Shown here in pieces: positions 7,254 through 54,399 of a DNA stretch of 64,000 nucleotides. Source of the DNA: an uncultured Acidobacteriota bacterium (GTDB taxonomy: Bacteria; Acidobacteriota; Polarisedimenticolia; Polarisedimenticolales; DASRJG01); NCBI GenBank assembly GCA_964647625.1, contig CAZYHZ010000012.1:1-64000 (forward strand), given 5' to 3'. The notes beneath the pieces are model-generated. The model worked only from the letters and a program-made list of their open reading frames with translations, did no database searches and had not been told where the DNA came from. A program made the translations under genes and the position numbers. Every line of letters starts with the position of its first letter. The first letter of the stretch is position 1.

Positions 7254-7254
7254 A

Positions 7255-9445: not shown

Positions 9446-9452
9446 GCGGCCG

Positions 9453-10136: not shown

Positions 10137-10154
10137 CGGGGCCGAAATTTTCGC

Positions 10155-10202
10155 TTGACCGGGTCATAATGTAAATGTAAACTCACATTTGCATATGATG
10201 CA
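10155..10202 (+). promoter_or_regulatory. Sigma70-like promoter (TTGACC, 17 nt spacer, TAAACT) with overlapping palindromic operator AAATGT-N6-ACATTT and a second palindrome TGCAT-ATG-ATGCA; AGGAGG RBS at 10216..10221
   Basis: The sequence was read directly from the TetR/MFS divergent intergenic region. The inverted repeat overlaps the -10 box, typical of a TetR operator. Confidence 0.55.
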
Positions 10203-10227
10203 AGCCCGGGAAAAAGGAGGAGCCCTC

Positions 10228-33400: not shown

Positions 33401-36115
33401 CTGCGTAGACATCGTCCTCCATGTGTCCGTCGACGGGTCGTACAGCCCTCCGGTATTGAAGAACGAGTTGTGGCTCGACCCACCCCAGACGATCATGCGA
33501 GTCCCCGTCCATACAGTCGAATGTCCCGCTCGTGCGTCGGGGACGTTTGGCCCCGTCGAGGTGCGCGTCCATCTGTCAGTGGTCGGCTCGTAGCGGCCGC
33601 CTGTGTTGAAGTAGACGTACGAGGCAGAGGAGTAGTCATAGATGTATCCGCCCCATACGATCATCTGCGCCCCTGTCCACACTGCGGTATGGCCCTCGCG
33701 GGCTTCGGGGACGTCGGAATTCGTCGCAGTCGGAGTCCAGGTATCCGTGGACGGGCTGTAGCGGCCGCCTGAATTGAAGTCGGAGGAGCCCACGGAGGGT
33801 TTTCCACCCCAGATGATCATCTGGGTCCCGGTCCACACCGCGGAGTGTTCAGAACGCGCCGCGGGGACGCCTGTACCGGTCGAAATCGCCGTCCAAGAAT
33901 CCGTCGACGGGTTGTAGCGACCGCCTGTGTTGACGTCGAAGGCGGACGTGCCCGATTGGCCGCCCCAGACGATCATCTCCGTGCCCGTCCACACTGCGGT
34001 GTTCCCGGAAAGCGGCGCGGGAACGAAGGCTCCCGAGGCGGTTGGTGTCCACGTGTCCATCGACGGGTTGTAGCGGCCCCCGGTGTTGTAAGTACTGTAA
34101 GGGTAGTTGGCGGTTCCACCCCAAACGATCATCTCCGTCCCCGTCCAGACCGCGGTCTGGTAGGACCGTGCGCCGGGGGCGTTCGTCCCCGTGGAAGTCG
34201 TCCTCCAGGTATCCGTCGACGGGTTGTATCGGCCGCCTGTGTTCAGCAAGATCGAGTTGGAGCCATTCAATCGGAATCCACCCCAAACGATCATCTCCGC
34301 CCCGGACCAAACTGCGGTGTGCCCGCTTCGTTGGCCTGGGACGTTTGCGCCGGTGGACGTTGCCGCCCATGTGTCCGTCAATGCGTTATAGCGGCCACCG
34401 GTGTTGAGGACAACGTAGGACGACGTCGGGTAGTCGTAGATCCATCCGCCCCAGACGATCATCTCCGTTCCTGTCCAAATTGCGGTGTGTCCCTCGCGCC
34501 CTGGGGGAACGTTGGTGCCCGTGGAGATGGCCGTCCAAGAGTCCGTCGATGGGTTGTAGCGCCCACCGGTGTTCAAGTACGTGGTCGAGGTTCCGGAGTA
34601 GCCTGATCCGCCCCAGACAATCATCTCCGTCCCTGTCCAAATTGCGGTGTGCTCCTCACGCGCTGCGGGGACGTTGCTGCCCGTGGACGTCGGGTTCCAC
34701 GTGTCCGTTGATGGGTTGTATCGCGCGCCGGTGTTGACGGAGGCGCCGAAAGAGGAAGCGGACTCTTGGAACCCGCCCCAGACGATCATCTCCTCCCCGG
34801 TCCACAACGCGCTGTGGCCTGCACGCGCGCCAGGAGCGTTGGTGCCTGTAGAGGTTGGCTTCCAGGTGTCCGTTGCCGGGTTGTAGCAACCGCCCGTGTC
34901 TAGGTAATCGTACGGAGGGGATGCGCCACCGCTCCCGCCCCAGACGATCATCGTAGTACCCGTCCACACCGCCGTGTGATCCAAACGCGCCGATGGGACG
35001 TTGACGTCCATCGAGGTAACCACCCATGAGTTCGTCGAGGGGTTGTAGCGGCCGCCCGTGTTCAAACCTGTATAGCTGTCGTAGGTTCCGCCCCAAACGA
35101 TCATTTCAGTTCCAGTCCACACCGCGGTATGTTGACGGCGCGGATCGGGTTCGTCGATTCGAGTCGGCTCCCAGGTGTCGTTAGTACAAATCGTCGGTGG
35201 GACGGGTGGGGCTTCAAACGGTCCCGTTGACGGTTCGATCGCAAGCGCGATCCCGGTTGCGGTTGTTTCCCACCAGTAATCAAACGTGCGCTTCGGCCAA
35301 ACGACGTTAGCCGTTTCGATCCCTGCATCATTTCGAGCGAGGATCGCGGAAACCACGAACGCGTCGGGTGTTTCCTCGAGCCCGCTGAGCCGGTTCGTCG
35401 GGAGAGATTCGGCGGTCGCATTGAACCGCCTCGCGAGGGCGCGGAGCTGCTCGTGCCATTCGTCAGCGTTGAGCATCAGCGTTCGCTTGTGAGTTTGGTC
35501 CACCTCTGAACTGGTGTCGTGGATTCCGAGCTTGATGCGACCCTCGACAAAGTGTCCGCCCATGGACTTCATGCACTCAACGCCCTTACACGCGGCCAGC
35601 GCTGCCTCGGCCCTTGCCTTCACGTCACCGTGGAATCGAGAGTCAGCGGAATACCAGTCGTGGATCAGTCGGTCGACCAGCGTCTGCCGTGCAAGCGTCT
35701 CTGCGATGACGTACGGGTCGTCGCCGAGAGCGTGGAACAACTCGCGCAGGATCGCGCCGTCGCGCGTCTCGCGCGCCATCCGGTTCAGCTCGGCCTGGAG
35801 ATCGGCCGCCGTCACCGGATGCTGCCAGTACGCCTTCAACGCGTTCGACTTCTTGAGGTAGCCCTCGACCTTCGCTCGGAGTGCCGTGTCGGGCATCACC
35901 GCCGACAGCGGCGGCTTCGGCGTCTTGTTTTCCGCCGGCCAGATGCGATGGTTCCAGTAGACCTGCTCGATGGAGCGCTGGTACTCGACGCGCTCATCGA
36001 TGGTGAGGCTGCGGGCGAAGCTAGGCGGAGCGCTCGCGACGATTGCGAACACAACGCTCGCAAGCAACGGACGCCACGCACCGACGGATCTTTTCATTGG
36101 AAGCTGCCCCCTCAC
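30437..36115 (-). CDS. Giant secreted protein (1892 aa): N-terminal domain, about 20 Kelch/galactose-oxidase-type beta-propeller repeats, about 10 Myxococcus-type cysteine-rich repeats, C-terminal beta-sandwich domain
   Basis: Signal peptide present. Kelch-like repeats follow the pattern HTAVWTGTEMIVWGG...YNPSTDTW. The Cys-rich repeats read CDDGNACTTDSCNPxSGCVHxNNTNPC. The 3' end overlaps the arsM 3' end by 8 nt (convergent). Confidence 0.9.
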   Translation of the reverse strand: MRGQLPMKRSVGAWRPLLASVVFAIVASAPPSFARSLTIDERVEYQRSIEQVYWNHRIWPAENKTPKPPLSAVMPDTALRAKVEGYLKKSNALKAYWQHPVTAADLQAELNRMARETRDGAILRELFHALGDDPYVIAETLARQTLVDRLIHDWYSADSRFHGDVKARAEAALAACKGVECMKSMGGHFVEGRIKLGIHDTSSEVDQTHKRTLMLNADEWHEQLRALARRFNATAESLPTNRLSGLEETPDAFVVSAILARNDAGIETANVVWPKRTFDYWWETTATGIALAIEPSTGPFEAPPVPPTICTNDTWEPTRIDEPDPRRQHTAVWTGTEMIVWGGTYDSYTGLNTGGRYNPSTNSWVVTSMDVNVPSARLDHTAVWTGTTMIVWGGSGGASPPYDYLDTGGCYNPATDTWKPTSTGTNAPGARAGHSALWTGEEMIVWGGFQESASSFGASVNTGARYNPSTDTWNPTSTGSNVPAAREEHTAIWTGTEMIVWGGSGYSGTSTTYLNTGGRYNPSTDSWTAISTGTNVPPGREGHTAIWTGTEMIVWGGWIYDYPTSSYVVLNTGGRYNALTDTWAATSTGANVPGQRSGHTAVWSGAEMIVWGGFRLNGSNSILLNTGGRYNPSTDTWRTTSTGTNAPGARSYQTAVWTGTEMIVWGGTANYPYSTYNTGGRYNPSMDTWTPTASGAFVPAPLSGNTAVWTGTEMIVWGGQSGTSAFDVNTGGRYNPSTDSWTAISTGTGVPAARSEHSAVWTGTQMIIWGGKPSVGSSDFNSGGRYSPSTDTWTPTATNSDVPEAREGHTAVWTGAQMIVWGGYIYDYSSASYVYFNTGGRYEPTTDRWTRTSTGPNVPDARAGHSTVWTGTRMIVWGGSSHNSFFNTGGLYDPSTDTWRTMSTQVNAPEKRAYQTAVWTGTRMVIWGGYGGLVGTSHVFFNTGGCYDPSADTWTSTSTGPNDPVSRYAHCAVWTGTEMIVWGGYNINFSPYQFNTGGRYNPSTDTWTATSVGAGLPGPRYGHTAVWTGTQMIVWGADTLTPTGGIYCACPNGVIGYRDADGDGYGTSGDSVEACDGIIPAGYVTNGADCNDTNRSVHPGVPETCNGIDDDCNGNIDDNGSLLCSDGNVCTDDVCNGISGCSHAYNAAPCDDGDACTANDTCAAGTCHSGPPRNCDDSNLCTDDSCDPATGCVHVDNTPSCDDGNACTTDLCLRYLGCVHVNNTDPCDDGNACTTIDSCLNGSCQSGPRRLCDDGDVCTDDSCDPSVGCVHVYNDAPCSDGNPCTTSDTCGGGACNGGPALNCDDGNPCTTDSCNPSSGCVHVNNTNPCSDGNACTTGDVCGGGSCHGGAAPNCDDGNICTTDSCSPTSGCVHANNTNACDDGNACTTNDSCGGGACNGGPAPNCDDANPCTDDSCNPASGCVHANNTSPCNDGNACTTGDVCSGGTCHGGPAPNCDDGNVCTTDTCSPTSGCVHANNTNPCDDGNVCTDNDTCGGGSCNPGAPHACDDGNVCTTDSCNPTSGCVFTNNSNSCDDDNACTTNDTCGGGACHGGPAPNCDDGNVCTSDSCNPASGCVHTNNTNPCDDGNACTTGDVCGGGSCRPGAPTSCDDGNCCTTDTCDPATGCHHAPNLTPPVFTTQPSLGACPVLWPPNHGYVDFTVQDTGAQAQAQCGIASISFASCASSQPENAYGTGDGNSTRDCVYEPGAVHLRAERNGACSPIGRDYLMTLIATDTCGNAVTSNPIDVAVWNDRTHQPAGTIYGARGGTNDQRDGVNGTYNSDVDGCGSGSACANGTVADHSDVDPEMEISQSAGIDVGDLKLNKVNGNLQLTWSMPSPRAPVNVTRFHVYRRDPETLAWTMVMELNKSQTGWNDPSMNDGHNWQYKVTAIIK
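31200..32780 (-). repeat. Tandem ~150-bp coding repeats (Cys-rich repeat array); all six frames open here
   Basis: Repeated gacgacggcaacgcctgcacc-type blocks are visible, and many overlapping shadow ORFs occur in the ORF track. Confidence 0.6.
33000..35100 (-). repeat. Tandem ~150-bp coding repeats (Kelch blade array)
   Basis: Recurring ccccagacgatcat...gtccagaccgcggtgtg blocks are visible. Confidence 0.6.
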
Positions 36116-40985: not shown

Positions 40986-42416
40986 ATGAACTCCCATGTT
41001 CCGTCCCAGACACCCCATGCCGATCAGGCGCCCGACCATCCCCCACATCACGCGAAGGCGAACCCTCCGACGCGGCGGATCAGACGTTGGTTGAGGCACC
41101 ACAAGGTCGAAATCATCCTGGCGGTGATATTCGCGGTCCCATTCGCCTTTCTCGCGGAGCGCCTCGTGGGGGTTCATGAGCACGACCCCTACAAAATCCA
41201 CGTCGTCGAATCGACCGATACCGACAAGGAAACGAAGGAGCTATTCGACGACCTGGCAAACCATTCGCCGCTGCGAGTTCAATCGATGGGCGACGTGCCG
41301 GTCAAGCTCGAGGTCAGCATTCTGCCCAATGACGACATCGCCACCGCGCAGAAACTGGCGGCCGACTTGGCGACCGCGCCGGATACGCTGATGATCATCG
41401 GCCATCTACCGAGCGGAATCACAGAAGCCATTCTGCCGATCGTCATGAAGGAGCGTCCACAGATCCCATACATTTCGACGTCGGCGAGCGCGGATGAGCT
41501 GTTGGCGAATTGCGACCCAAAGGACGTCGCCGTCAATGGATTCGTTCCACTGATTCAGCCGTCGCCTCGAAATTGTGATGAAGCCGCAGCCGCGGTGAAG
41601 TATGCGCTACAAGAGAAGAAGCAACGCTTCCTGCTCGTCACGGACAAACCTCCGGAAAAGGACCCGTATCTCGCCTCGCTCAGCAGCGCTTGGGAGAAAG
41701 AAATCGTCAAAGGGCACGCCTCCGTCGTCGGCAACCACGCGATGGATCTGCCGCTCTCGGACGAGCAGCTCAAGAATTGGAACCCCGACTGTATTCTCTA
41801 CGCGGGTGGGGTCGGCGTGGCCCAAACGCTGATGAACTCGCTGGCAAGCTCCGAGTCCCTCGCCAAAGCTTTGATGGCATCCGAGGTGAAGCTTCTCGCG
41901 ATTTTCGCCGATTCCGTGATTGAGTCTCGCGACAAGGACACAAATCTCATCAGTCTGTCCACCGCCCCGCGGGGGAAAGTGACGAACCTCAACGGGCTTA
42001 CGGACCTACGGTTCACGTACGCCGCCAACGCGGATGACTATAACGTGCACGACAACGAGTACGCGCAGGATGCGCTCAGGATCGCGACACAGCTGATCGC
42101 CGACCTCAGCGAGCGCGGAGGAGATCTTCGTTACCGGCTACGATCTCTCTTGCACTTGGAGACCGTCAAGGACGCACGGCGGAACCTGATTCAGATCATG
42201 GCGCAAAACGCCCACCTGAGATCCTGGTACGAATGCAACGGCGGAGAACCGTGTGTCTTCACGAAGTTCTACGGCTCCGAAGGAATGTTTCACTCGAGAC
42301 GAATCAACGGAATGTTTCACGTGTGGGAGGCGGACAGCGGGACCGCGAAGATGAAGGATGTCGACTACTGGCACCCGCCCAAGAGCGCGCTCCTTTACGC
42401 GTCCGCGATCAAATGA
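40986..42416 (+). CDS. Membrane-anchored periplasmic-binding-protein type 1 (LivJ/ANF-receptor-like) domain protein
   Basis: N-terminal TM (VEIILAVIFAVPFAFLA), then a PBP1-like domain (MIIGHLPSGITEAILPIVMKERPQIPYISTSAS). GC drops to ~57% here. Confidence 0.75.
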   Translation: MNSHVPSQTPHADQAPDHPPHHAKANPPTRRIRRWLRHHKVEIILAVIFAVPFAFLAERLVGVHEHDPYKIHVVESTDTDKETKELFDDLANHSPLRVQSMGDVPVKLEVSILPNDDIATAQKLAADLATAPDTLMIIGHLPSGITEAILPIVMKERPQIPYISTSASADELLANCDPKDVAVNGFVPLIQPSPRNCDEAAAAVKYALQEKKQRFLLVTDKPPEKDPYLASLSSAWEKEIVKGHASVVGNHAMDLPLSDEQLKNWNPDCILYAGGVGVAQTLMNSLASSESLAKALMASEVKLLAIFADSVIESRDKDTNLISLSTAPRGKVTNLNGLTDLRFTYAANADDYNVHDNEYAQDALRIATQLIADLSERGGDLRYRLRSLLHLETVKDARRNLIQIMAQNAHLRSWYECNGGEPCVFTKFYGSEGMFHSRRINGMFHVWEADSGTAKMKDVDYWHPPKSALLYASAIK

Positions 42417-42448: not shown

Positions 42449-44326
42449 CTATTTGTCCGACGGGTTCGTCGCGACGCGACGTGGGTCCGCTTCTCGAAGG
42501 GCGGTGAACTTCCACAGGCTGGCGGCCGCCGAATGACGCACACCCGGATCCCGGTCGTTCAGCAACGCCTTCAGCTGGGGCGTGAACTGCCTGACGGCAG
42601 CGGGTCCCATGGCCCCCACCTTCTCGGCCGCCCCACGCCTGATCTGTGCGCTGGAGTCGTTCAGCTCCTCCAAGATGCTCTGAACGGCCGACTTGTCGTT
42701 GTCGCTGAAATAGCCGATCGCACTGAGCGCATCGACGGTCTTGAGGCGAACCGACTGGTCGGGGTCGTTCAGCAGGGGCGAAATCTCGGTGCTGAACTTC
42801 GCGGCGCTCGAGGGATCATGAGCGGCGGCGTAGGTAAACGCGGCGAGCGCGCTCCCGCGAACGGCGCTGTTCGAGTCTCTCAGGAGTCCGGTCACCTCGG
42901 TCAGACGTGGAATGGTCGACGAAGTGCCGAGGCTTCCGAAGGCCGTTGCCGCGCTTCCACGGACCGAGGCGTCCGGATCCCGAAGCAGCGAGACGAATTC
43001 CGATGCGTAAGGCGCGGCCGCCTGGTCGCCCAGGGACGAGAGGTCGGTGACCGCCTTCGCGCGCACCACTGGGCTGGGCGATTTCATGAGCGACGCGAGC
43101 GTGTCTGCGCTCGGGTGCGTCACTTGCCACCACCGGAGGGCCCCCAGACCTAACATGACGAATAGAACACTGGCTGATCCGAGCCAGGCTCGCCGCCTGA
43201 GGCGCGTTGACTTGGACTTGAGCGTCTCGATGTGCAGCTGAGCTTCACGGGCCGACTGTTCCGCTTGCTCGGCGCGGACCGCGGCCTCCCGAGCCACTTC
43301 CCGGGCGTGGGAAAGCTCGACTCGCTGGTTCGCGACCTCTGCGTGCGTGGCCGTTTCTTCGAGGGCGGTCCAGTCCAGGCGATTCGACAGAAGCGTTGCC
43401 AGCCTGGCGTACGCCGCGCCGAGCGATGTCGGATCCAGTCGCTCCCGCTCGCTCTCCAGGACGGGGATTCGCTCACCGAAGCTCCAGCCGGCGACGTAGG
43501 GGATGAAGAGCCGGTTCAACGCGTCCGACGGGGCGACGTCATGGGGCAGCCACTCCCGGTAGAGATCGCTGAATTCCTCCGCGAAGATGCGCTGCCATTC
43601 GAGCGACTTGTCGTACTCCTTGTCCCGTTCGTCCCTCGCCGGAACGGGCACCCCCAGCAATTTGTTACGGTTCACCGGCAGCTTGGAGCGCGCACTGATT
43701 GCACGTGCCATCACGTTCTTGATTCCGGCGATGTTTTGGAAATTCGTCACGAAAAGGAGGACCAGCACATCCGGCAGGATCACCGTGCAAACGTCGCCGA
43801 TGTCCGTGATTCCCGTCCGGCTGTCGACCAGGATGAAGTCGTACGATTCACGCCATTCGTTCCGCAATGCGTCGATGTGGTTCCCGATGTTGTGATGGCG
43901 GTACAACGTGTCCCAGTCGAGTTGCTGGATGCGCTGCCGGTAGTCATCGCCGCGGCGCCCCGCCGAGATGATGTCGATCGGGTGGCCGAACACATCCGCC
44001 GTCAAGCGGCAGTTTCGCCAGTCGAGTGGCGCGCCCTTGCCGTACCCCTCGACGACGTCGACGACGCCGGGCGTTTTCGCCGGGTCGCCCACGAGCCGGC
44101 CGGACTTCTCGAAATAAATCTCGAGACCCGGCGCCTCGAGATCCCAATCGATGAGCAGGACACGATGACCTGCGGCCGCCATGACCGCACCGACGTTGGC
44201 GAGCGCCATCGAGCGGCCCACGCCGCCCTTGTAGGAATAGAACGTATAAACGAGGCCGAGGGGGTTCTCGGTAGATCCATCAATCACCGGCAGGCCTCCT
44301 GATCGGCTGTTCCGGTGTGACTCCAT
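42449..44326 (-). CDS. KGGVGR-motif ParA/MinD-like P-loop ATPase, then coiled-coil, TM and C-terminal HEAT/PBS-lyase repeats
   Basis: Deviant Walker A (YSYKGGVGRSMALANVGAVMA), coiled-coil, TM (AWLGSASVLFVMLGLGAL) and HEAT repeats (VRAKAVTDLSSLGD...). An alternative GTG start at 44287 overlaps the TIR stop (GTGATTGA). Confidence 0.85.
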   Translation of the reverse strand: MESHRNSRSGGLPVIDGSTENPLGLVYTFYSYKGGVGRSMALANVGAVMAAAGHRVLLIDWDLEAPGLEIYFEKSGRLVGDPAKTPGVVDVVEGYGKGAPLDWRNCRLTADVFGHPIDIISAGRRGDDYRQRIQQLDWDTLYRHHNIGNHIDALRNEWRESYDFILVDSRTGITDIGDVCTVILPDVLVLLFVTNFQNIAGIKNVMARAISARSKLPVNRNKLLGVPVPARDERDKEYDKSLEWQRIFAEEFSDLYREWLPHDVAPSDALNRLFIPYVAGWSFGERIPVLESERERLDPTSLGAAYARLATLLSNRLDWTALEETATHAEVANQRVELSHAREVAREAAVRAEQAEQSAREAQLHIETLKSKSTRLRRRAWLGSASVLFVMLGLGALRWWQVTHPSADTLASLMKSPSPVVRAKAVTDLSSLGDQAAAPYASEFVSLLRDPDASVRGSAATAFGSLGTSSTIPRLTEVTGLLRDSNSAVRGSALAAFTYAAAHDPSSAAKFSTEISPLLNDPDQSVRLKTVDALSAIGYFSDNDKSAVQSILEELNDSSAQIRRGAAEKVGAMGPAAVRQFTPQLKALLNDRDPGVRHSAAASLWKFTALREADPRRVATNPSDK

Positions 44327-44861
44327 CCTCGGGGACTTCGACGACGGGGAACCCGTCGTCGTAGGGAGGCGCGTTGAGGATCGTCTGGGCGAGCTCGTGC
44401 GCGAACGGCTTCAGGATCTGATTCTCGAAATCGACGGCGGATTCCGTCTTCCAAAACATCGGCAGAGTCGATGTGAACTGACTGAAGTCCCGAGAATGCT
44501 TCGCCGTGGCGAGCGCCGGGAAGGATTCGCCGTCAAAGTACCGCACCGGGACCACGAGGTCGCAATGAGCAACACGCTCGCGCTCGACGAAGGTCATCCA
44601 CTCCGAAACGCACCAGCGGGATCGGAAGTACAGGGGCGACCAGACGCACAGGATGCAGCGTGACCGCTTGAGCGAATCCGCCATCTTCTTTCGCCAGTCG
44701 ACGCCTGTCTTGATGTCCTCGGTATCGAAGAATATCTGGACGTCCTGGCGCTGAAGCTCCAGCTTCAACCAATAGTGCAGCTTGGTCTTGACGGTCTCAT
44801 GCCACGCGTCGCTTTCCCGGTCGCGCTTGTAGCTGAAGAAAACGTCGTACAGATAGTCCAA
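44280..44861 (-). CDS. TIR-domain protein
   Basis: TTG start, 5 nt after GAGGTG. TIR motifs are YDVFFSYKRD and SRCILCVWSPLYFRSRWCVSEW. Confidence 0.88.
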   Translation of the reverse strand: MDYLYDVFFSYKRDRESDAWHETVKTKLHYWLKLELQRQDVQIFFDTEDIKTGVDWRKKMADSLKRSRCILCVWSPLYFRSRWCVSEWMTFVERERVAHCDLVVPVRYFDGESFPALATAKHSRDFSQFTSTLPMFWKTESAVDFENQILKPFAHELAQTILNAPPYDDGFPVVEVPEDGVTPEQPIRRPAGD

Positions 44862-44997
44862 CGCTCACCTCGCCGATCGAACCCGCTTGAATCGCGAGCG
44901 AAGAGATGTCGCCGTCGAATCTCAGCCTGGCTATGGGGCCAGCGAGCCGATTCTAACCCCGAACGTTCTGCCGAGGCACCACTTCTTGTCGCCGTCC

Positions 44998-45873
44998 CTA
45001 GACTCGCCGGGCCACCCACGATCGATGCTCCCGGGAAACGACGGCCTCGACGTCATTGACCAATCGCGCCAGATCGGCCTCGCTCTGAACTCCTTGGGCG
45101 CGCGATTTCAGCTCGTTGAGGTCGCTGTGCGCGGCGCTGTAGGCGCCCGCCAGCTCCGAGAACTTCTTGGCCTGGGACCACGCCAAAAGGCAGGCCGATA
45201 GGGCCGCCACGGCCCCGGTCGGGTTGTATTCGCGGATGACGAACATACGGGACGCCGCGGCGATGATCGCGAGGACCTCGAGCACGGTGATCGCCCGGAA
45301 CGAAATTGAATCCGCAACCGCGTTCGCCTTCGCGCTCTCGCGGTACCAGTCGATCTGGTCCTGGAGGCGGTGCGTCGAATAGACGTCCGTCCGCTCCGCC
45401 AGCGTCATCGACCGGAGCCGCAGCATCGCGGGAGTGATCTCGTCCCCGGAGACGCCGAACCGCGCGATGTGTGCGTCCATCCGGGGAAAGCGCCGCCGCA
45501 GTTGGTGAAGCTCATCCAAGAAACTCTCGGCGTCTTCGGCTCCGCCCGGCCTCATCACGAATCGCCACGTTGCGGCCTTGACGCTCTCGGCGATCGCCCT
45601 CGTGCGGAACCATCTGTCGTCCAGCGCGGCCAATTTGAGCGTCAACGTCAACACCAACGCGAAAAACATCAAAATCGCAATCAGCCCGTCGACCCGATGC
45701 GCGAGCGGCAGGTCGCGTGGTGACCAGGCCGACAGGAATGCCGTCGCGCCCAGCAGCAGAAGGTGCGCTCCGAGCCAACGTAGATAGGAGCGCTGATAGG
45801 CCCGCGCGGCCGCAGAGCTCGACTGCAAGATCGCGGGGCCACCCTGCAGCGGGCTTACAGACGCCTTGGGCAT
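44998..45873 (-). CDS. SLATT-domain (DUF4231) membrane protein
   Basis: ATG at 45873, 6 nt after GGAGAA. The conserved block is YQRSYLRWLGAHLL...2TM...LDDRWFRTRAIAESVKAATWRF. The ORF-track start at 46086 is an extension. Confidence 0.75.
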   Translation of the reverse strand: MPKASVSPLQGGPAILQSSSAAARAYQRSYLRWLGAHLLLLGATAFLSAWSPRDLPLAHRVDGLIAILMFFALVLTLTLKLAALDDRWFRTRAIAESVKAATWRFVMRPGGAEDAESFLDELHQLRRRFPRMDAHIARFGVSGDEITPAMLRLRSMTLAERTDVYSTHRLQDQIDWYRESAKANAVADSISFRAITVLEVLAIIAAASRMFVIREYNPTGAVAALSACLLAWSQAKKFSELAGAYSAAHSDLNELKSRAQGVQSEADLARLVNDVEAVVSREHRSWVARRV

Positions 45874-45993: not shown

Positions 45994-48246
45994 GTGTACG
46001 TCCTCAGCAAAGATCCAAGATTCAACAGCCTCTCCGTGGCGGATCTTCTCGAAGCGCGTGATCTCTATCACACGCATCTGATCCACAAGAGGAACGTCGT
46101 CGGCACGGCGATCGGCCGGTACCTCATCCGGAAGGACGACAGTGCGCGGCGCAGCGACGGCTCCAAGCCCGAGCGCCGTTTCGACAACTCAGAGATCAAA
46201 GATTGGTCGTGGCCCTGCGTGATCGTACTCGTCGACCAATGGGAGGACTCGGCGGCGCCCTACGACCTGGTTCCCAAGACGCTCTATCTGCCTGACGGAC
46301 GAAGCGTGCCCGTCTGCCTCGTCCTCGTGGATCGACAACCCCACGATGGATCGAAGATCCCGCATTGGGTCTGGCCCGACGGTTTGTGGGGCGGGGGCAT
46401 GCCTCTCATCGTCGATGCTCAACGCATCGAGCGAGTCGCAAGCTCCGGCTGCCTCGTGAGCGACGGTCACACCCTCTACGTGTTGACCAACCGGCATGTG
46501 TGCGGAAACCCGGGCCAGGCCGTGTACACCCTGCAATCGGGGCGACGCAAGCTCGTTGGTCACGCCAGCGACAAGCAGCTGACCCGGAGGGCGTTCAAGA
46601 AGGTGTACACGGGTTACGTTGGCCGCCAGACGTGGCTGAACCTCGACGTCGGTCTGGTCGAGCTCGACGACGCCAGTGCGTGGACGTCGCAGGTGTACGG
46701 GCTTGGCCCTGTGGGCCAGCTCGCCGACCTCAGCGAGATCAACATCAGCCTGCGTCTCATCGACGAGCCCGTGGTGGCACACGGAGCGGCCTCCGGTCAG
46801 CTCGATGGAAAGATCATGGCGTTGTTCTATCGGTATCGGTCCGTGGGCGGGTTCGAGTACGTGGCCGATCTCTTGATCGCTCCTCCCGGTCGCGGAAAGC
46901 TCCAAACGCAACCGGGAGACTCGGGAACGATTTGGCATCTTCGAGACACCGATACCAAGAAGCTGCTGCCTCTCGCCATCGAGTGGGGCGGCCAGACGAT
47001 CGCCGATCCGCAAGCCGGGGGCCTCGTCAATTTCGCGCTCGCCACCAACCTGAGCACCGTGTGCCGTCTCCTCGATGTCGACGTCGTGGGCGACCACAAC
47101 GTCGGCGTTGCGCCCTACTGGGGGCAAACGGGTCACTACAGCATCGGATCGCTTGCGTGCGACCTCGTATCGTCGAAGAACCTTTCTCAGCTCATGACTT
47201 CGAATCGTGATCGGATCGCGTTCGCTACCGCCGAGCTGAATCCGGCGGACATCGGGGACGCGATCAAGACCGCGAAAACGGACGCCGGATTCATTCCGCT
47301 CGCGGACGTTCCCGATCTCGTCTGGAAGACGCTCGTCGGAAAAGTTGCCGGCGGCCGAGATCCGTACCGTGGCGCCAAGGGGCGCTCGAACGGCCCGGAG
47401 CATCCGACCCATTACGCCGACATCGACGAGGAGCGCGAGAGCGACGGCAAGACCCTGCGTCAGTTGTGTATGGAAGATCCGTCGAACGTCGACGTGGAGG
47501 TGTGGAAAAAGTTCTACACCGACCTTGGCCACACAGAGTACGGGAAACGCGGTCTCCTTCCATTCCGGGTGTGGCAGTTCTACGACGCGATGATCGCCGC
47601 GGTGAAGTCCAAGAAGCTCGATGAGTTCGTTTGCGCGGCCGGTCTCGTCTCGCACTACGTCGGCGACGCCTGTCAACCGCTCCACGGCTCGAAGCTGGCC
47701 GACGGATACGCCGATCAGCCAACCACGGTGGAGCACACCCGAAGGGCGACGGGCGAGACCTACGAGGAGGACTCGCACGTCGGTGCGGGAGTGCATTCCG
47801 CGTACGAGACGAACATGGTCGACCGGTTCGCATCGGAGCTGGTGGCCGGTCTGACAAAGGCGATCAAGGAGCCTTCGAAGGGGCCCAAGCCGGTCGCATC
47901 GGGGCATGAAGCGGCCGCGGCCATCGTCGCTCTGATGGATCGCACTGCGAAACGCCTTCCGCCGGAACAGCTCATACAGACGTATCTCAAGGCCGGCGGA
48001 AAGAAGGCCGTCGCCGTTTACGAAGCGCTCTGGGATGCGTATGGCGACGCGACCATCGAGACGATGCTCGATGGGTCGCAGGTCCTGGCGATGATTTGGG
48101 ACAGCGCGTGGTCGGCAGGGAAGGGCGATTCGATTCCCCAGGGGTCGTTGGCGGCGATCAAGAAGGAGACGTTGCAGGAGCTGTACGAGAACACGGAGTT
48201 CGTCCCGTCGCTCGACCTGGATCACATCGGCGCCGTCCTGAAATGA
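45994..48246 (+). CDS. Fusion protein: N-terminal trypsin-like serine protease domain plus C-terminal S1/P1-nuclease (Zn-dependent PLC/nuclease) domain
   Basis: GTG start. Trypsin catalytic elements are TNRHV (His), DVGLVEL (Asp) and GDSGTIWH (Ser). The C-terminal SHYVGDACQPLH matches the S1-P1 nuclease HxxGDxxQPxH signature. Confidence 0.85.
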   Translation: MYVLSKDPRFNSLSVADLLEARDLYHTHLIHKRNVVGTAIGRYLIRKDDSARRSDGSKPERRFDNSEIKDWSWPCVIVLVDQWEDSAAPYDLVPKTLYLPDGRSVPVCLVLVDRQPHDGSKIPHWVWPDGLWGGGMPLIVDAQRIERVASSGCLVSDGHTLYVLTNRHVCGNPGQAVYTLQSGRRKLVGHASDKQLTRRAFKKVYTGYVGRQTWLNLDVGLVELDDASAWTSQVYGLGPVGQLADLSEINISLRLIDEPVVAHGAASGQLDGKIMALFYRYRSVGGFEYVADLLIAPPGRGKLQTQPGDSGTIWHLRDTDTKKLLPLAIEWGGQTIADPQAGGLVNFALATNLSTVCRLLDVDVVGDHNVGVAPYWGQTGHYSIGSLACDLVSSKNLSQLMTSNRDRIAFATAELNPADIGDAIKTAKTDAGFIPLADVPDLVWKTLVGKVAGGRDPYRGAKGRSNGPEHPTHYADIDEERESDGKTLRQLCMEDPSNVDVEVWKKFYTDLGHTEYGKRGLLPFRVWQFYDAMIAAVKSKKLDEFVCAAGLVSHYVGDACQPLHGSKLADGYADQPTTVEHTRRATGETYEEDSHVGAGVHSAYETNMVDRFASELVAGLTKAIKEPSKGPKPVASGHEAAAAIVALMDRTAKRLPPEQLIQTYLKAGGKKAVAVYEALWDAYGDATIETMLDGSQVLAMIWDSAWSAGKGDSIPQGSLAAIKKETLQELYENTEFVPSLDLDHIGAVLK

Positions 48247-48271
48247 CGGCGCTCGAACAGGAGACGCGACG

Positions 48272-49159
48272 ATGACGCGTGGCGCATTCGGTTTCGAAGT
48301 GAACGACGAGGGGGACCTCCTCAACTCGGTACGGAACGTCGAGACGCTGCGACGATTGTTCCTGGATCACACGTTGATCACGGGCGACGATCTCGGCCCG
48401 GGCGATCGAGGGGACTTCGACGTCGGGGCGTGGCACGTGAGCTGCCACTTGGCGGGCGCCGGCGGCGTCCGGAAGAGTCGAACCGGTAAGCTGCTCTGGC
48501 TCGAGATCTCGCACGATCACGACCGCGATTCGTACTATGCGAGCGTTTCCTTGCGCGACGGTGGATCCGTTCGCACCGTCCGGATCGAGACGGCGGAAGG
48601 CCGGTCGATTCTGAGCGGCTCGCGGCTCCTCGGGTTCGTGGAGGGAACCTCGATCGGTCCCATCTCCGCGCACGGCGTGCAGGACCCTCCCGATCTCTTC
48701 AATCTCTGGCGGAGGCAAGATTTCGACCAGCCGATCGGCGAGACGATCGAAGGCGGGAAGGTCTGGGAGCACTGGTGCACGCTCCGCGATATCCGGCCGA
48801 CGCATCGCATCGGGACCGTCACCTTGAGCGCGTACGTCGCCCTCGCCGCGGCGCTCGGAGATCGGTTTGCCGCGACGGTGGCTCGTGGCCGCAGAGAGTA
48901 CGGGCACCCGGTCCAGCTCGCAGCGTTCGTCTGGTCGGGATTCGTCGGACGTCGTTCCGCGACGTGGGACACGAAACCGGCCCCGATCCCAGCCGCTGCG
49001 GAACCCTTGCTGCTGAGCGCCGATCCCGCTCAGGCGCTCGAGGCCGTCGAGCGCTTGGACTGGCCGTCGCTGCGCTACTACATGTACCGCCGAAAGATCA
49101 AAGGCTGGAGCGCGGCCGCCCATGTGAGCAAAGACATCAAAGCGTTCAAGCCGGCGTGA
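48272..49159 (+). CDS. Hypothetical protein (no recognisable domain)
   Basis: ATG 7 nt after AGGAGA and 25 nt after the upstream stop. Coding-like composition. Confidence 0.7.
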   Translation: MTRGAFGFEVNDEGDLLNSVRNVETLRRLFLDHTLITGDDLGPGDRGDFDVGAWHVSCHLAGAGGVRKSRTGKLLWLEISHDHDRDSYYASVSLRDGGSVRTVRIETAEGRSILSGSRLLGFVEGTSIGPISAHGVQDPPDLFNLWRRQDFDQPIGETIEGGKVWEHWCTLRDIRPTHRIGTVTLSAYVALAAALGDRFAATVARGRREYGHPVQLAAFVWSGFVGRRSATWDTKPAPIPAAAEPLLLSADPAQALEAVERLDWPSLRYYMYRRKIKGWSAAAHVSKDIKAFKPA

Positions 49160-49176
49160 CGAGCCAGAGGACAACG

Positions 49177-50358
49177 ATGCCGAAACATCTCATTGTTCGC
49201 GACGCCGCGGCCGTCAAGGCCGTCGAAGCGATCGGCGACCACACGGATAGCTGGAAGGCAGGCTGGGCCGCAATCAAGTCCGGTGGCGAGGTCATCGCAG
49301 AGATCCAGTCGATCGCGCGCGCCCGGTCCTGGACCTCGCTCACGGACGCGACGCCGTTTCTCAACGATCACGCACAGCGCCTCCTCGAGATGCGCCTCGA
49401 AGCGATCCACAAGTTCAAGATCGCTCCGCATCACCGTCGCGGTTTCAGGATGAATGTGCGTTCGGGAGCTCGGAAGCCGCGAAGCGTTCGGGCGCTGTGT
49501 CTGATCAGCGGGTACGAAGGCCAGGAAATCCCCGGCCTCGTCGATGCCGAAAGGGTCGTGGTCGACGCCGAGCACATGGAGCAGGCGCTGGGTCCCGCAG
49601 CGATCGCGGAGATCTTCAAGATCCGGAAGCGCATCGGGGAGAACGTCCTGATCTCCACCAACGTCTCCGAGTCACCGCAAATCGTGAGGTCGGCCCAGAC
49701 GGGCGCCGTCGATGTCCGCTCGACCGCGGCACTCTCCGCGTCCAAGGTGATTGCAGCCATCAGCGCGGGAGCCGACGTCGTCAAGGTCGGCTTCGCCAAT
49801 CCAAACCCGTTCAAGGGAGATCTCGGCTTCGAGGTGATCCTGAGTCAGATGAAGCTGATCCGTTCGATGATCGACGACGTCGTCAAGGAGAGACTGGTCG
49901 TCTTCCCGCTCAGCCGCACGGAAGGACAATTTCCGCTGATCAGCGTTTTTTTCCCCGAGATGGGGATCGACAGCGCGGGCGAGCGGCCGGTCGAAATCGC
50001 ACAGAAGGGAATCGAGCTGACCAAGAAAGCCGGCTGGCAGGGGATGCTGATCGATACGTTCGAGAAGTACACGGGCCGCCGGTACCCGGATTTCTACTCG
50101 CTGGCTGATACGGCGGCGCTTGCAAGCGCCGCGCACGAGTCGAAGCTCGAGTTATGGATCGCCGGCTCCATCCTCCAAGCGGAGGTTGCCGCTTATCTGA
50201 AATGCGGCGTCGACCTCATCTGCTTCGGCGGGGCTGCCCGTCATGCGGAGGGAATCCGCGTCACGTCGAAGGGGGCCAAGCGGGACGAGTCCATCAAGCG
50301 GCCTCTCGTCGAAAAGCTCGTCGCGACGTTCAACAAGCTCGATCCCAAGGGCCGCTGA
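49177..50358 (+). CDS. Hypothetical protein, possibly aldolase-type TIM-barrel-like (AISAGADVVKVGFANP block)
   Basis: ATG at 49177 after AGAGGA, 17 nt after the upstream stop. The stop overlaps the next ATG (TGATG). The fold assignment is speculative. Confidence 0.7.
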   Translation: MPKHLIVRDAAAVKAVEAIGDHTDSWKAGWAAIKSGGEVIAEIQSIARARSWTSLTDATPFLNDHAQRLLEMRLEAIHKFKIAPHHRRGFRMNVRSGARKPRSVRALCLISGYEGQEIPGLVDAERVVVDAEHMEQALGPAAIAEIFKIRKRIGENVLISTNVSESPQIVRSAQTGAVDVRSTAALSASKVIAAISAGADVVKVGFANPNPFKGDLGFEVILSQMKLIRSMIDDVVKERLVVFPLSRTEGQFPLISVFFPEMGIDSAGERPVEIAQKGIELTKKAGWQGMLIDTFEKYTGRRYPDFYSLADTAALASAAHESKLELWIAGSILQAEVAAYLKCGVDLICFGGAARHAEGIRVTSKGAKRDESIKRPLVEKLVATFNKLDPKGR

Positions 50359-51242
50359 TGCCCCAACGCGCCAAACGTCGCGGGCTCCTCTCGGACGCTC
50401 GCGTCTATCTTTCGGGGCCCATGGATTTCGTCGCGTCGCGCGCCGACGAAAAGACGCACGGGTGGCGCAATAGGGTCGGAGAGTTCCTGCGGGCTCTCGG
50501 AGTGACGGTATTCGACCCGTGGTTCAAGCCGGAGGTCCGCGGGCTTCATCAATACGGCATCGAATCCGAATCCACCGTCAATGCCCGCGAGAGCTGGACG
50601 TTCGCTCGTGGGAAGCTCGGCGGTCGCGCCAGGGCCAAATGCGTGGCGCAGTACTGGCAGACTCTTCACACGGATCTCAGGATGGTCGACACCAGCGATT
50701 TCATCGTTGCCTACGTTCCCACCAATATTTACAGCGTGGGCACGCCGCACGAGATTGCGCTCGCTCGCCAGCAGCGCAAACCCGTGCTCTTCGTGAGTCC
50801 CGCGGTGGAGATTCCTGCGCTCGACGAGCTGAAGCGTCATCTGGAAGACCGCAACGATGCACGAGGCCGAAAACTGCTCGAAGATCTCTGCAACGAGACG
50901 CCGATCAAGCCGAACCCAAGGGGCATTCCCAGCCTCTGGTACATGCCTCTCGTCGGCGGACAAAATTTTTTCGACGGTTTCGGTTTCCACCAATACGCCA
51001 GGCTATTCCCGGACTGGAAACCGATCTCTATCGACGGCCAAGAAGCGAAGAAGCGGCCTGTCCGACCGCTGCTGCCGTTTCTCGAGCGGGTCAATCGAGA
51101 GCTTCCTCTCAAGTGGGACGCGGCAGGCAGGCGTCCTCGACCCGACGACGACTGGCTTCTCTGGGACCTCCGACGCGCCGGTCGTCGAAAGGCAGGGGCA
51201 CAACTCAAGGGCGTTCGAAGCTCGACCGAGTCCCTGGGCTGA
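50358..51242 (+). CDS. Nucleoside 2-deoxyribosyltransferase-like (NDT/DNPH1-fold) domain protein
   Basis: ATG at 50358. VYLSGPMDF corresponds to the NDT YFGAGWF-type strand. The DFIVAYVPTNIYSVGTPHEIALA block carries a Glu at the NDT catalytic-Glu position. Confidence 0.75.
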   Translation: MPQRAKRRGLLSDARVYLSGPMDFVASRADEKTHGWRNRVGEFLRALGVTVFDPWFKPEVRGLHQYGIESESTVNARESWTFARGKLGGRARAKCVAQYWQTLHTDLRMVDTSDFIVAYVPTNIYSVGTPHEIALARQQRKPVLFVSPAVEIPALDELKRHLEDRNDARGRKLLEDLCNETPIKPNPRGIPSLWYMPLVGGQNFFDGFGFHQYARLFPDWKPISIDGQEAKKRPVRPLLPFLERVNRELPLKWDAAGRRPRPDDDWLLWDLRRAGRRKAGAQLKGVRSSTESLG

Positions 51243-51254: not shown

Positions 51255-54200
51255 CTACTTTTCGAGGACCGCCTCGCGTGCGGCCTTTTGAATGGCCAGG
51301 ATGGAAATCCCTTCGTTCGCCTGATAGGGGTTTCCCGAGCCGTCGATCGCCGTCATTCGGTCTTTCCCGCTGTGGTGCAGCGCGACTGCGCGCCACCCGT
51401 TCGGCTCGAAAACCGGACTGCCGGAGCTTCCGCCCTCGGTCGGCGATCGGTAGTGCAGGCGGGTCTCGTTGAACGCGACGAGACGATTGTCGTGGAGCGA
51501 GATCTCCAGATCCCTCCCGCCGGGACACCCGATCACGTACATCCGGGGAGCGGGTGTGGTCATCTTCATCGGCGCGGGGCACAGAGGAATCGGGACGGAG
51601 TTCGGTAGAACGCCCTCCAGCTCGAGGAAGCTGGCGTCGAGCTGGTCGACCGGAGAGCTCCAAACGACCCTTCGGACTCCCAGCATGCTTCCGCCGTTGG
51701 GACCGCCGAGGAAGTGGATCTGGGCCTCCCACGGAAGAAGAGGCGGTACGCCGACGCCACCGCCTTTGGCCGGCGGGTTGGCGATCACGTGCGCATTGGT
51801 CAGCAGCACGATCTCTCCATCCGGGCGCGACGGGAAGAAGTCGCGTGCGCGAACGAGCCACCCGGTTCCGACCCCGCGCCCCGCCTGCTCGATCCGTGCC
51901 ACGCTCTTGCTTCGCTCAATGGCCATCAAGAGCCAAGCGATGCTCTGAGAACCTTCCGCTCCGAACCGGCGTTGCAGGCCAGCAGTGTCGGGGTTCAGCG
52001 CATCTCGACTCAAGTTGATTCGTCCGGCCGGTCGCTTCGCGAGCGCGTCGCGAATCAGCGGAAGGATCTGTTTGCCCGGATCGGAACCGTCGCTGAGTCG
52101 CCAGATTTCTTCGAGCTGTCGCCGCGTTCCCTCGAGCGCAAAGGACGTGATGCCGGCGGCACGGAAATACTCCCGCGCCGCGTTGACGGCCTCGTCGTTT
52201 CGGCCGAGGGCGATGTAGGCCTCCATCTGGCTCGCGATGACCCACAAGTCATCGTCCGTGGCCATTGCGCCGTGGGTTTTTCGGTCCAGGCTCTCGAGGA
52301 TCTTCGCGGCGAGATCGGACGCCGACGCTCGGTCGCCTTTCCGGGACAGCAACGCCGCCGCGTTGACTCCCTGCCAGTGGTTGGACTCCGCGTTCCGGGA
52401 ATATGCGGCCGAGTAGTAGTCGATCGCCTTTTGCAGGTCTTCCGGCCGGCCCTCGCCGAACTGTTTTTCGACGTTCACGAAGGCCTGCTTGTGCAGCCGG
52501 CCCATCAAGCCCGTGGCCTCGTCTCGTTCCTCGGCCGGTGCGCCCTGATCGGCGATGAGCCTTTCCAGGATGAACTGCGCTTCGGGAAACCGACCGACGT
52601 CGAGGAAGGCCTGAGCGGTCAAGCGCTTGATCTTTGCGCTGTGGAGGCCGGACTTTTCGATCGCGCCGGAAAGTCGAACCAAAGCATCGAAACGCCGATA
52701 ATCCCGCAGCGCACCGACCGTATGTTTCGCGAGTTGCTCTTCAACCGGCTGCCCGAGGGCAGAGATCGCACGGATCAGCTCATCGACGATCGAATCGACT
52801 CCCACCCAGTCGTATTCGCTCAGCCGGTCTTTGAGTCGTTTCTCGAGCTTCTCGAGCGGTGTCCTCGACGTGGAGTCGTTGTCGAGGACGACGTCTACCC
52901 AGCCGTTGATGGGCGTGTAGATCTGCTCCGCGGATTCGAATCCGGCCTCGGAGGGCTTCTTCGGATCGAACTCTCTCAAACTTCCGAAGTCCAGATGCGT
53001 CAGCTTCTCGAGCGTGACGATCGGAAGCTGGTACGTACGAAACTCGCCGAACGCGAATTCCAGGCCGGAGATCATGTCCGCTTGGCTCAAAATATACGCG
53101 GTCGCGGAAAGGCGGCCGGCGTCTCCGATAATGCTGACCACCTTCCAGAACTGAAGCGGGATTTTCGCGCCCCGGTATGGCATGTCCTCGTCGCTGAACA
53201 CCGGTCCCGTGAAAACATTGACCTTGAGATTCTCTTGCCCCGCATTCCGGTAGATGTACTCTTCGAGATCGTTCCAAATTTTCTGATTCAGGTCTTTGTG
53301 TTGTGGGCACGAGTTCGTGTAGTGGAAAGTGTCGGAATTTGCGCCCTCGGCGTCGTCCCCCCAAACGGGATCCAGTCTCCTGACCATGTGCCCGCGGTCG
53401 AGGTCGTTGTCGACGTAAAGTGCGTTGTCGAACTGGGCCTCGTCGGCGAGGCGCGGATCCAAGCGCCAGGGGACCCCGTCCCTGCCGAGACTCTGGAGCG
53501 AAGTTCCGAGGATGTTCACTGCGGTGAACATGCTCAGCCGACGTGAGCGACTCATGACGACCGAAAAATGGGTGTACGGAAGGACGGTCGAGGTCGTGTT
53601 CTTCGTCGTCATGTATGAAAGAACGTCGCCGGCGAGCGGTCCTGTCGGCGTGGGCAGCGGGACGGCAATGCCGATGAAGTTCTCGTCGTACCCTGTGCGA
53701 TCGTCGTATTCCGAGGGATCAACGCGTCGTTCGAGGCCCTCGAGCGATTCCGCGAGCCTGATTGCGGTTCGGCCCGGCGGGAGGCTCAATCCGAGTTCCT
53801 CGGCCAGCGCCGCGATTCGCGAGACTGGGATCACCCCGCCGCCGTCCGCCACGAGACCGATGGCTTCGCCGGAAGATAGGGAAACGATCGGCGCGCCCAG
53901 GGCGCCATTCGGGAACGGTCCATCCGCGTCGAGCCGGGACAAAGGCTGTCCGGGGGAGAATCGTCCGAATCCAATCCACGAGCTCGCGCGCGAGCCCAGC
54001 ACGGCGGCATCGTCGTCGGTAGCCGTCCGAGCGACGGGGATGTGAGCAGGCAACGAACCGTCCACCTCCACGATGGCGAGATCGGGATCGTTGCGGCTTC
54101 GAAGCACCGCGCGCACGCGCACCGACTCTCCCGACCTGAGGCGAACCACTGACCCGACAGTGGGGTCCGTGCGGAAGGCGATCACACGTCCGGGTGCGAT

Positions 54201-54380
54201 GACCCACCCGGCGGCGAGGACACTCGACGCCGGCTCGAATTCGCAGACGGCCGCAGCGGCTCGGCGCAGGTCGTTGACCGCGAACGCCGCGCAGCGATAC
54301 CAACGCTTCGATGCGTCCTTTGCCAGGACGTCGAGCACGCTGCCGGGATCGGCGGTCGAAGTCAACGTCACGAATGGCAT
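51255..54380 (-). CDS. Giant multidomain protein (1041 aa): protease-like N-domain, DNA/RNA non-specific endonuclease (NUC, DRGH motif), TPR-like helical region, C-terminal trypsin-like serine protease
   Basis: ATG at 54380, 7 nt after GGGAG. The NUC motif reads DRGHMVRRLDP...N...FHYTN. The C-terminal S1 peptidase shows LLTNAHVI (His) and EGGSSGSPVF (Ser). The ORF-track start at 54629 is an extension. Confidence 0.85.
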   Translation of the reverse strand: MPFVTLTSTADPGSVLDVLAKDASKRWYRCAAFAVNDLRRAAAAVCEFEPASSVLAAGWVIAPGRVIAFRTDPTVGSVVRLRSGESVRVRAVLRSRNDPDLAIVEVDGSLPAHIPVARTATDDDAAVLGSRASSWIGFGRFSPGQPLSRLDADGPFPNGALGAPIVSLSSGEAIGLVADGGGVIPVSRIAALAEELGLSLPPGRTAIRLAESLEGLERRVDPSEYDDRTGYDENFIGIAVPLPTPTGPLAGDVLSYMTTKNTTSTVLPYTHFSVVMSRSRRLSMFTAVNILGTSLQSLGRDGVPWRLDPRLADEAQFDNALYVDNDLDRGHMVRRLDPVWGDDAEGANSDTFHYTNSCPQHKDLNQKIWNDLEEYIYRNAGQENLKVNVFTGPVFSDEDMPYRGAKIPLQFWKVVSIIGDAGRLSATAYILSQADMISGLEFAFGEFRTYQLPIVTLEKLTHLDFGSLREFDPKKPSEAGFESAEQIYTPINGWVDVVLDNDSTSRTPLEKLEKRLKDRLSEYDWVGVDSIVDELIRAISALGQPVEEQLAKHTVGALRDYRRFDALVRLSGAIEKSGLHSAKIKRLTAQAFLDVGRFPEAQFILERLIADQGAPAEERDEATGLMGRLHKQAFVNVEKQFGEGRPEDLQKAIDYYSAAYSRNAESNHWQGVNAAALLSRKGDRASASDLAAKILESLDRKTHGAMATDDDLWVIASQMEAYIALGRNDEAVNAAREYFRAAGITSFALEGTRRQLEEIWRLSDGSDPGKQILPLIRDALAKRPAGRINLSRDALNPDTAGLQRRFGAEGSQSIAWLLMAIERSKSVARIEQAGRGVGTGWLVRARDFFPSRPDGEIVLLTNAHVIANPPAKGGGVGVPPLLPWEAQIHFLGGPNGGSMLGVRRVVWSSPVDQLDASFLELEGVLPNSVPIPLCPAPMKMTTPAPRMYVIGCPGGRDLEISLHDNRLVAFNETRLHYRSPTEGGSSGSPVFEPNGWRAVALHHSGKDRMTAIDGSGNPYQANEGISILAIQKAAREAVLEK

Positions 54381-54399
54381 TGCTCGCTCCCTCGTCGCG

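Follow-up and report, generated by a model that had tools for sequence, protein, structure and literature searches.

The window analysed here, a 64,000-nucleotide (nt) stretch of contig CAZYHZ010000012.1 from an uncultured Acidobacteriota bacterium, carries a row of three genes for a SLATT-domain membrane protein, a TIR-domain protein and a ParA-like ATPase with the P-loop variant KGGVGR, which an earlier note on this DNA had read as a three-gene operon. We found that the functional unit is almost certainly the translationally coupled pair of TIR and KGGVGR-ATPase genes, whereas SLATT is a local neighbour and not a conserved member of the TIR-ATPase module; the boundary of the system is thereby corrected to two genes, with SLATT as an optional third gene and possibly a co-opted partner. 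The pair probably has a role in conflict or defence, and we hold it slightly better than an even bet that it forms a TIR-based defence module with a membrane sensor/switch, acting probably against phages or by abortive infection. The main interest lies in the obligate coupling of a TIR protein to a ParA-like protein and in the receptor-like topology of the latter, not in a triad with SLATT.

All three open reading frames (ORFs) lie on the minus strand where the earlier note had placed them (Table 1), and gene callers run independently on identical contigs in public data (a Logan soil assembly and GCA_016853205.1) gave the same products of 291, 193 and 612 amino acids (aa). The TIR stop codon overlaps the GTG start of the ATPase gene within GTGATTGA, as had been noticed, and AGGAGG is located 6 nt upstream of that GTG; SLATT and TIR, by contrast, are separated by a 136-nt gap. 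With the ATPase as query, more than 5,000 homologues were matched, the best 120 of which were compared in detail. A profile of its N-terminal domain, searched against 1.84 billion representatives, matched 4,333 clusters at 50% identity (E <= 1e-30), and in bacteria sampled at one genome per species it matched at least 595 loci, distributed over many phyla. A metagenome scan with the full-length ATPase matched only the identical contig. The ATPase ORF could be delimited in 66 loci (the window and 65 others), and in every one of them it is directly preceded by a TIR ORF of the same orientation; the loci come from Acidobacteriota, Actinomycetota, Bacteroidota, Planctomycetota, Chloroflexota, Cyanobacteria and Pseudomonadota. 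The KGGVGR motif starts 17-55 nt past the TIR stop in 60 of the 66 loci, a distance that forces stop and start to overlap or abut as they do in the window. Moreover, the pairwise identities of the TIR proteins follow those of the ATPases (r = 0.82, a value reached by 0 of 999 permutations), and the three closest HEAT-type homologues keep both the 193-aa TIR and the 8-nt overlap among unrelated neighbours. The earlier statement that KGGVGR ATPases are frequent TIR neighbours was an understatement, since within this clade every ATPase gene directly follows a TIR gene and is translationally coupled to it. In the literature we found no paper that describes the TIR-KGGVGR pair.

More distant KGGVGR[ST] ATPases (31-41% identical), found on IMG/VR viral contigs (L096-L107) and rhizobial plasmids (H3-H5), have an MqsA-like or Crp-like gene in place of TIR. 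These upstream genes encode MqsA-like Zn-ribbon/helix-turn-helix (HTH) or Crp-like winged HTH proteins and are tightly coupled to the ATPase gene, and PGAP labels such pairs as 'ParA family protein' beside 'type II TA system antitoxin MqsA family protein'. Because the HTH genes occupy the position that TIR has in the pair, with the same tight coupling, the ATPase appears to be a general switch for a range of output proteins.

The TIR protein matches Pfam TIR_2 (1.4e-18) and, weakly, FxsC_Nterm. It is by prediction an enzyme that cleaves nicotinamide adenine dinucleotide (NAD): the catalytic Glu87, found without exception in the 66 partner TIRs, lies in a WCxxE motif that aligns with plant TIR domains (SRWCVSEW against SSWCLDEL). 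The TTG start proposed earlier, with its good ribosome-binding site, is borne out by the GAGGTGA that precedes it and by the homologous start codons, ATG in locus L085 and GTG in L086. Outside the TIR core, towards the C terminus, an AP.W...WP motif (aa 164-172 of the window TIR) is conserved in the TIRs of all 66 loci and is a candidate contact site for the ATPase.

The ATPase scores 145 bits (cut-off 90; 3.2e-42) with NCBIfam AAA_KGGVGR (NF047398), with KGGVGR at aa 20-25, and its tail matches several HEAT families (Pfam HEAT and HEAT_2, and NCBIfam). These matches and a single-chain AlphaFold2 model, with a predicted local distance difference test (pLDDT) score of 81.7 overall, uphold the architecture described earlier, a KGGVGR ParA-like ATPase followed by a coiled coil, a transmembrane (TM) helix and a HEAT tail; in Foldseek the tail is closest to alphaRep/HEAT proteins and the head to pNOB8 ParA and BchL. 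A profile alignment with MinD (4V03) shows that the signature Lys, switch I (DWDLEAPG) and Walker B (DSRTG) are retained and that GKT is changed to GRS. The same P-loop Lys-to-Arg change is present in all 104 homologues among the best 120 that retain the N terminus, the other 16 being N-terminally truncated. Walker-A Lys-to-Arg mutants of other proteins (RecA K72R, Rad51 K191R) bind nucleotide and hydrolyse it poorly, and by this analogy the KGGVGR domain is expected to bind nucleotide with poor hydrolysis, as a switch and not a motor.

Across the best 120 homologues the N-terminal domain is 50-73% identical, with KGGVGR invariant wherever the N terminus is kept, and the C-terminal part is swapped among HEAT, TPR, LRR, WD40, pentapeptide, FGE-sulfatase, OmpA, cytochrome c or nothing recognisable. 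Within the HEAT type, the ATPase domain is 55-74% identical and the HEAT domain 24-47%, the latter evolving about twice as fast. A hydrophobic helix lies about 85 residues past the WSFGE motif in 117 of 158 members, with exactly one such helix in 110 of these 117. The 117 TM-bearing members have on average 4.6 Lys/Arg residues on the N-terminal side of the helix and 2.0 on the C-terminal side, and 101 of them obey the positive-inside rule for an N-in, C-out orientation. Members that end in a second TIR offer an independent check on this topology through the parity of TM helices in their linker, since a C-terminal TIR must be cytoplasmic: the linker has none (12 cases) or two (16 cases) and never one. 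The ATPase is thus predicted to be receptor-like, N-in and C-out, with an extracytoplasmic HEAT domain, and a place in the periplasm would also suit the OmpA, cytochrome c and pilin-like tails of other members.

A second, C-terminal TIR is found on the ATPase in about 10-15% of members (L010, L011, L059, L069, L077, P0288, P0264 and others). The versions in Pseudonocardiaceae (L023-L078, for example L041 at 1394-7436) are soluble ATPases without a TM helix and are followed by two conserved genes, one for a protein of about 205 aa with no Pfam match and one for a protein of about 1040 aa with two P-loops (AAA_22 and HerA/DUF87; PADLOC mad8, 2.4e-17).

The SLATT assignment, like that of TIR, is borne out by profile searches with E-values far beyond chance. 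The protein matches SLATT_3 (1.2e-16), SLATT_1 (5.9e-29) and DUF4231 (3e-07) in Pfam, and SLATT_1 (103 bits, cut-off 41) and SLATT_3 (94 bits, cut-off 45) in NCBIfam, so that the DUF4231/SLATT identity proposed earlier holds but its description as a single 2TM unit does not, as there are two SLATT modules, SLATT_3 and SLATT_1. Single-sequence search gave 4 homologous proteins and profile search 93. The window SLATT, the SLATT of locus L088 (P0122) and protein P0123 are about equidistant, at 48-53% identity. P0123, 48% identical to the window protein, is encoded directly after a ThsB_TIR gene with a 4-nt overlap, and its TIR partner is 38% identical (E = 4e-27) to the validated type VII ThsB of Pseudohongiella (bioRxiv 10.64898/2025.12.03.692087). 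By way of this pairing, the window SLATT is predicted to be a ThsH-like pore-forming effector, and the earlier idea that SLATT and TIR are recurrent partners agrees with type VII Thoeris as described in the same preprint. The SLATT-TIR spacer contains no terminator-like and no sigma-70-like site and its predicted RNA folding is nothing unusual (z = 0.21), and no conserved promoter or leader was found upstream of the TIR genes in homologous loci, where the region is unconserved.

Although SLATT is not a standing member of the module, the pair has several links to Thoeris-type effectors. Three family members (P0083, P0220 and P0322) are ATPase-SLATT fusions, and in P0083 the SLATT part can be aligned with the window SLATT over its full length. 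In locus L036 (Agrobacterium sp. SOY23, 5908-10787), the genes for ThsA, TIR, KGGVGR ATPase and ThsB follow one another with gaps of 5-40 nt that indicate a single operon, and PADLOC identifies ThsA (9.8e-184) and ThsB (7.3e-57); it is a natural four-gene Thoeris variant, which suggests that the pair can act as a ThsB-like signal source. For the locus in the window, functional coupling of SLATT to the pair falls a little short of an even chance.

We propose that the variable C-terminal domain, here periplasm-facing HEAT repeats, would sense a cue, which the coiled-coil stalk and single TM helix would pass to the cytoplasmic P-loop domain. The cue would lead to nucleotide-dependent dimerisation or oligomerisation of the P-loop domains and so bring the bound TIR proteins together in an active NAD+-cleaving state, as NADase or cyclase. 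The output might be NAD+ depletion where the pair is alone, or, beside a Thoeris-type effector (SLATT here, ThsA in L036), a signal derived from ADP-ribose; at nearly even chance, the TIR product would open SLATT and permeabilise the membrane. Regarding the ATPase as the sensor/switch, and hence this direction of signalling, is a call that could go either way; a regulator is favoured over an effector because L036 already has ThsA as effector and because distant relatives carry HTH genes in the coupled slot. The surroundings suit a defence role: the window is a conflict-gene island and the ATPase matches the PADLOC candidate PDC-M28B. In its fullest form, the proposal is an outside-in immune receptor, running from extracytoplasmic repeats through a TM helix and a ParA-like switch to TIR and here feeding a ThsH-like SLATT pore; the cue would arise on the envelope side, for example when a phage adsorbs or injects its DNA or a competitor attacks. 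To this complete pathway we give a low probability; if true, it would be functionally analogous to Toll-like-receptor signalling while consisting of unrelated parts.

Several points weigh against the proposed mechanism. The TM helix is absent from 41 of 158 members, including all of those in Pseudonocardiaceae, so membrane sensing is not universal, and a periplasmic location is unusual for HEAT repeats. With Arg in place of Lys in its P-loop, the domain could be inactive or could bind a ligand other than ATP, and related MinD/ParA-like domains in conflict systems have been termed inactive by Aravind's group (PMC7159879). Many loci are flanked by housekeeping genes (alaS, pheS, nuoN, typA, gltB). 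Contact between the TIR protein and the ATPase is a prediction from the coupling of their genes. As for SLATT, neither an iterative search nor a SLATT profile found any within 8 kilobases (kb) of the 65 other loci. L088, which holds its best homologue on a long contig (P0122, 51% identical), keeps SLATT and lacks TIR, ATPase and the 476-aa gene that is convergent with the ATPase gene in the window, and four further SLATT homologues are orphans near STAND, WD40 or CHAT genes. The flanks of L088 are those of the window, with a divergent four-gene operon (70-80% identical) on one side and a DUF2252 gene (59% identical) on the other, from which it follows that a 4.1-kb segment with TIR, ATPase and the 476-aa gene separates two related genomes; no convincing repeats flanking this indel were found. 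The earlier note had named unrelated conserved neighbours as fatal to its operon, and L088, where SLATT shares both flanks without the TIR-ATPase pair, comes close to that.

Adjacent genes on one strand with no terminator-like site in the 136-nt gap, the existence of ATPase-SLATT fusions, the recurrence of the order effector-TIR-ATPase with ThsA in L036, and the status of TIR plus SLATT as a validated Thoeris type (bioRxiv 10.64898/2025.12.03.692087) would all suit a dedicated co-transcribed triad, in which TIR makes the signal for SLATT as the pore-forming effector, with the ATPase as an integral third member. However, the window TIR is not of the ThsB_TIR type that partners SLATT in type VII, L088 has SLATT and its flanks without the pair, and the arrangement is unique to this contig: looking for the three genes together in other genomes, as the earlier note had advised, we found SLATT missing from 65 of 65 other loci and from beside the three closest HEAT-type homologues. 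Nor was SLATT among the 82 same-strand neighbours of the pair that were scanned with Pfam, where the only family to recur was that of further TIR genes. What remains of the proposed operon is the TIR-ATPase pair, and a dedicated triad is rather doubtful. The synteny of SLATT, the divergent four-gene operon and DUF2252 in L088 could instead mean that SLATT belongs to that operon and that TIR-ATPase is an unrelated module that landed beside them in a defence island; the 750-aa protein of the operon matches the PADLOC 'trypsin-like' model (2.3e-57) and its deoxyribosyltransferase-like enzyme could handle nucleotide signals. We consider this unlikely, since the two genomes are relatives, about 70% identical in nucleotides and 70-80% in the amino acids of the operon, and synteny may be mere inheritance, the operon is lacking beside the four other SLATT homologues, and these partners are in no PADLOC system.

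The roles within the pair might also be reversed, making it a new Thoeris type in which TIR itself senses infection and makes an ADPR-derived signal, the KGGVGR domain is the receptor and binds this nucleotide with its altered P-loop, and the TM helix or C terminus is the effector, for example by membrane disruption on oligomerisation. Thoeris TIRs sense phage directly and their effectors join a sensor domain to an enzyme or to TM helices (bioRxiv 10.64898/2025.12.03.692087), Arg for Lys in the P-loop hints that the ligand is handled differently, and some C termini are effector-like (SLATT or a second TIR). Yet most C-terminal domains are ligand-binding repeats and not toxic domains, ThsA is already the effector in L036, the HTH partners of relatives make no nucleotide signal, and the obligate stop/start overlap suggests a stoichiometric complex. 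Table S1 of the same preprint, by Yirmiya et al., has a candidate 'ATPase' partner class, but its TIRs are only distant relatives of the window TIR clade, scoring 27-58 bits with a profile of the 66 partner TIRs against 200 bits for the window TIR, itself a member of that profile; altogether we think role reversal quite improbable. A non-immune function in housekeeping or developmental membrane signalling, such as envelope surveillance or regulated NAD turnover, would explain why many loci lie among housekeeping genes, and it accords with the positioning work usual for ParA/MinD relatives and with the abundance of the family in developmentally complex Actinomycetota. It is nonetheless very unlikely given the patchy distribution and the indel between related genomes, the hypervariable C termini, a catalytic TIR typical of conflict systems, and the position of the pair within Thoeris (L036) and within islands rich in TIR, STAND and trypsin genes.

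The defence module with a membrane sensor/switch that we favour resembles several known systems in part. As in type VII Thoeris (ThsB TIR plus ThsH SLATT; Yirmiya et al.), a TIR gene whose product has the catalytic glutamate (Glu87, WCxxE) adjoins a gene for a SLATT_3/SLATT_1 membrane protein. However, the window TIR is TIR_2/plant-like and not ThsB_TIR in Pfam and has no significant similarity (E > 0.6) to the two type VII ThsB domains of Table S1, SLATT precedes TIR at a distance of 136 nt, the TIR has the KGGVGR ATPase as an obligate companion, and the SLATT-TIR pairing is not conserved across genomes. Type I Thoeris (ThsA SIR2-SLOG plus ThsB) is approached by L036, where the pair lies inside a canonical ThsA...ThsB operon, but the window has no ThsA or SLOG protein and ThsB acts without an ATPase partner; among the neighbours scanned with Pfam or PADLOC there was no SMODS or SLOG match. 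With the TIR-NTPase-repeat receptors (plant TNLs and bacterial TIR-STAND/Avs-type NLR-like proteins; NTPase, nucleoside triphosphatase), the pair shares a TIR output, a P-loop switch and fast-evolving variable repeats. The resemblance is in logic only, because the NTPase is of the SIMIBI class, ParA/MinD-like and not STAND (NACHT/NB-ARC), TIR is encoded by a separate coupled gene, and most family members insert a TM helix and have repeats predicted to lie outside the cytoplasm.

The deviant-Walker-A ATPases ParA and MinD have the same fold, signature Lys and switch I/II aspartates and likewise a small partner protein encoded alongside, but here GKT is GRS, a TM anchor replaces the amphipathic helix or DNA binding, and the partner is TIR. 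Component B of the PADLOC candidate PDC-M28 matches the ATPase domain of the window (1.5e-23) and those of L041, L036 and P0083, although the match is partial (profile positions 131-366 of 438); PDC-M28A had no match among the neighbours in the window or related loci, and we found no description of the composition of PDC-M28 in the searchable literature. Inactive MinD/ParA-like domains also occur in TIR-containing VMAP-ternary and Fxs-type conflict systems (Kaur et al. 2020, PMC7159879), which thus combine TIR with a MinD/ParA-like domain predicted to have lost normal ATPase chemistry. There, however, vWA or AP-ATPase proteins carry this domain fused in the effector position, as one among many, whereas here a two-gene module has it as its conserved core, and the pair is not described in that paper.

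TIR enzymes are shared by plant, animal and bacterial immunity, and how bacterial TIRs are activated is known for a few systems only. The TIR clade described here is large and has as its obligate partner a ParA-like protein with an Arg P-loop, most members of which have a receptor-like topology. If the proposed reading is true, it would add to TIR immunity an NTPase switch of a new class, SIMIBI and not STAND, and a case of sensing from outside the cytoplasm, and it would give a biology to the NCBI label 'KGGVGR-motif variant AAA ATPase', which has none attached at present.

Table 1. Position of the genes, their junctions and the ATPase domains in the window
Feature	Position	Strand	Details
SLATT protein gene	44998-45873	minus	291 aa, ATG start at 45873
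Spacer between SLATT and TIR	44862-44997	minus	136 nt
TIR gene	44280-44861	minus	193 aa, TTG start
Overlap of TIR stop and ATPase GTG	44280-44287	minus	GTGATTGA, 8 nt
ATPase gene	42449-44287	minus	612 aa, GTG start at 44287
ParA/MinD-like P-loop domain, aa 12-301	43385-44254	minus	NCBIfam; AlphaFold2, pLDDT about 90
KGGVGR motif	44213-44230	minus	within P-loop domain
Long helix, coiled-coil-like stalk, aa 306-357 (52 residues)	43217-43372	minus	AlphaFold2 secondary structure
Single TM helix, aa 368-390	43118-43186	minus	AlphaFold2; basic KSKSTRLRRR just before
HEAT-repeat solenoid, aa 394-605	42473-43108	minus	Pfam HEAT/HEAT_2, AlphaFold2

Two other candidates that came up in related loci were rejected. 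A 252-aa TIR and a 592-aa gene product in L088 were considered as a divergent TIR-KGGVGR pair, but the 592-aa protein has no P-loop and is lipoprotein-like, and a partial upstream gene in L086, considered as a possible SLATT gene, encodes a dehydrogenase-like protein.

The region from 42 to 58 kb of the window is a dense conflict-gene island. The four-gene operon divergent from SLATT (45994-51242, plus strand) may be a separate conflict system; its products are the 750-aa trypsin-like/Nal1_C protein, which also has weak S1-P1 nuclease/PLC matches, a 295-aa protein without a match, a 4HFCP-synthase-like protein and a nucleoside-2-deoxyribosyltransferase-like protein. It is followed on the minus strand by a gene for a 1124-aa protein (51255-54629) that combines Endonuclease_NS, TPR-S, MAP3K_TRAF_bd and Trypsin_2, which is an Aravind-type TPR-S/trypsin conflict architecture and has a partial homologue in L088, and by a gene for a second TIR_2 protein of 476 aa (55118-56548). 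A TPR/TPR-S protein encoded on the plus strand (57262-58548) partially matches the CBASS 'Effector TIR' model of PADLOC. On the other side, the plus-strand gene convergent with the ATPase gene (40986-42416) has a product of 476 aa with a TM helix at its N terminus and a weak match to a periplasmic-binding protein, and no homologue of it was found beside homologous TIR-ATPase pairs (L085 checked). Farther away, at 30437-36115 on the minus strand, lies the gene for a giant 1892-aa protein with Kelch beta-propellers and Dictyostelium-type CTDC repeats.

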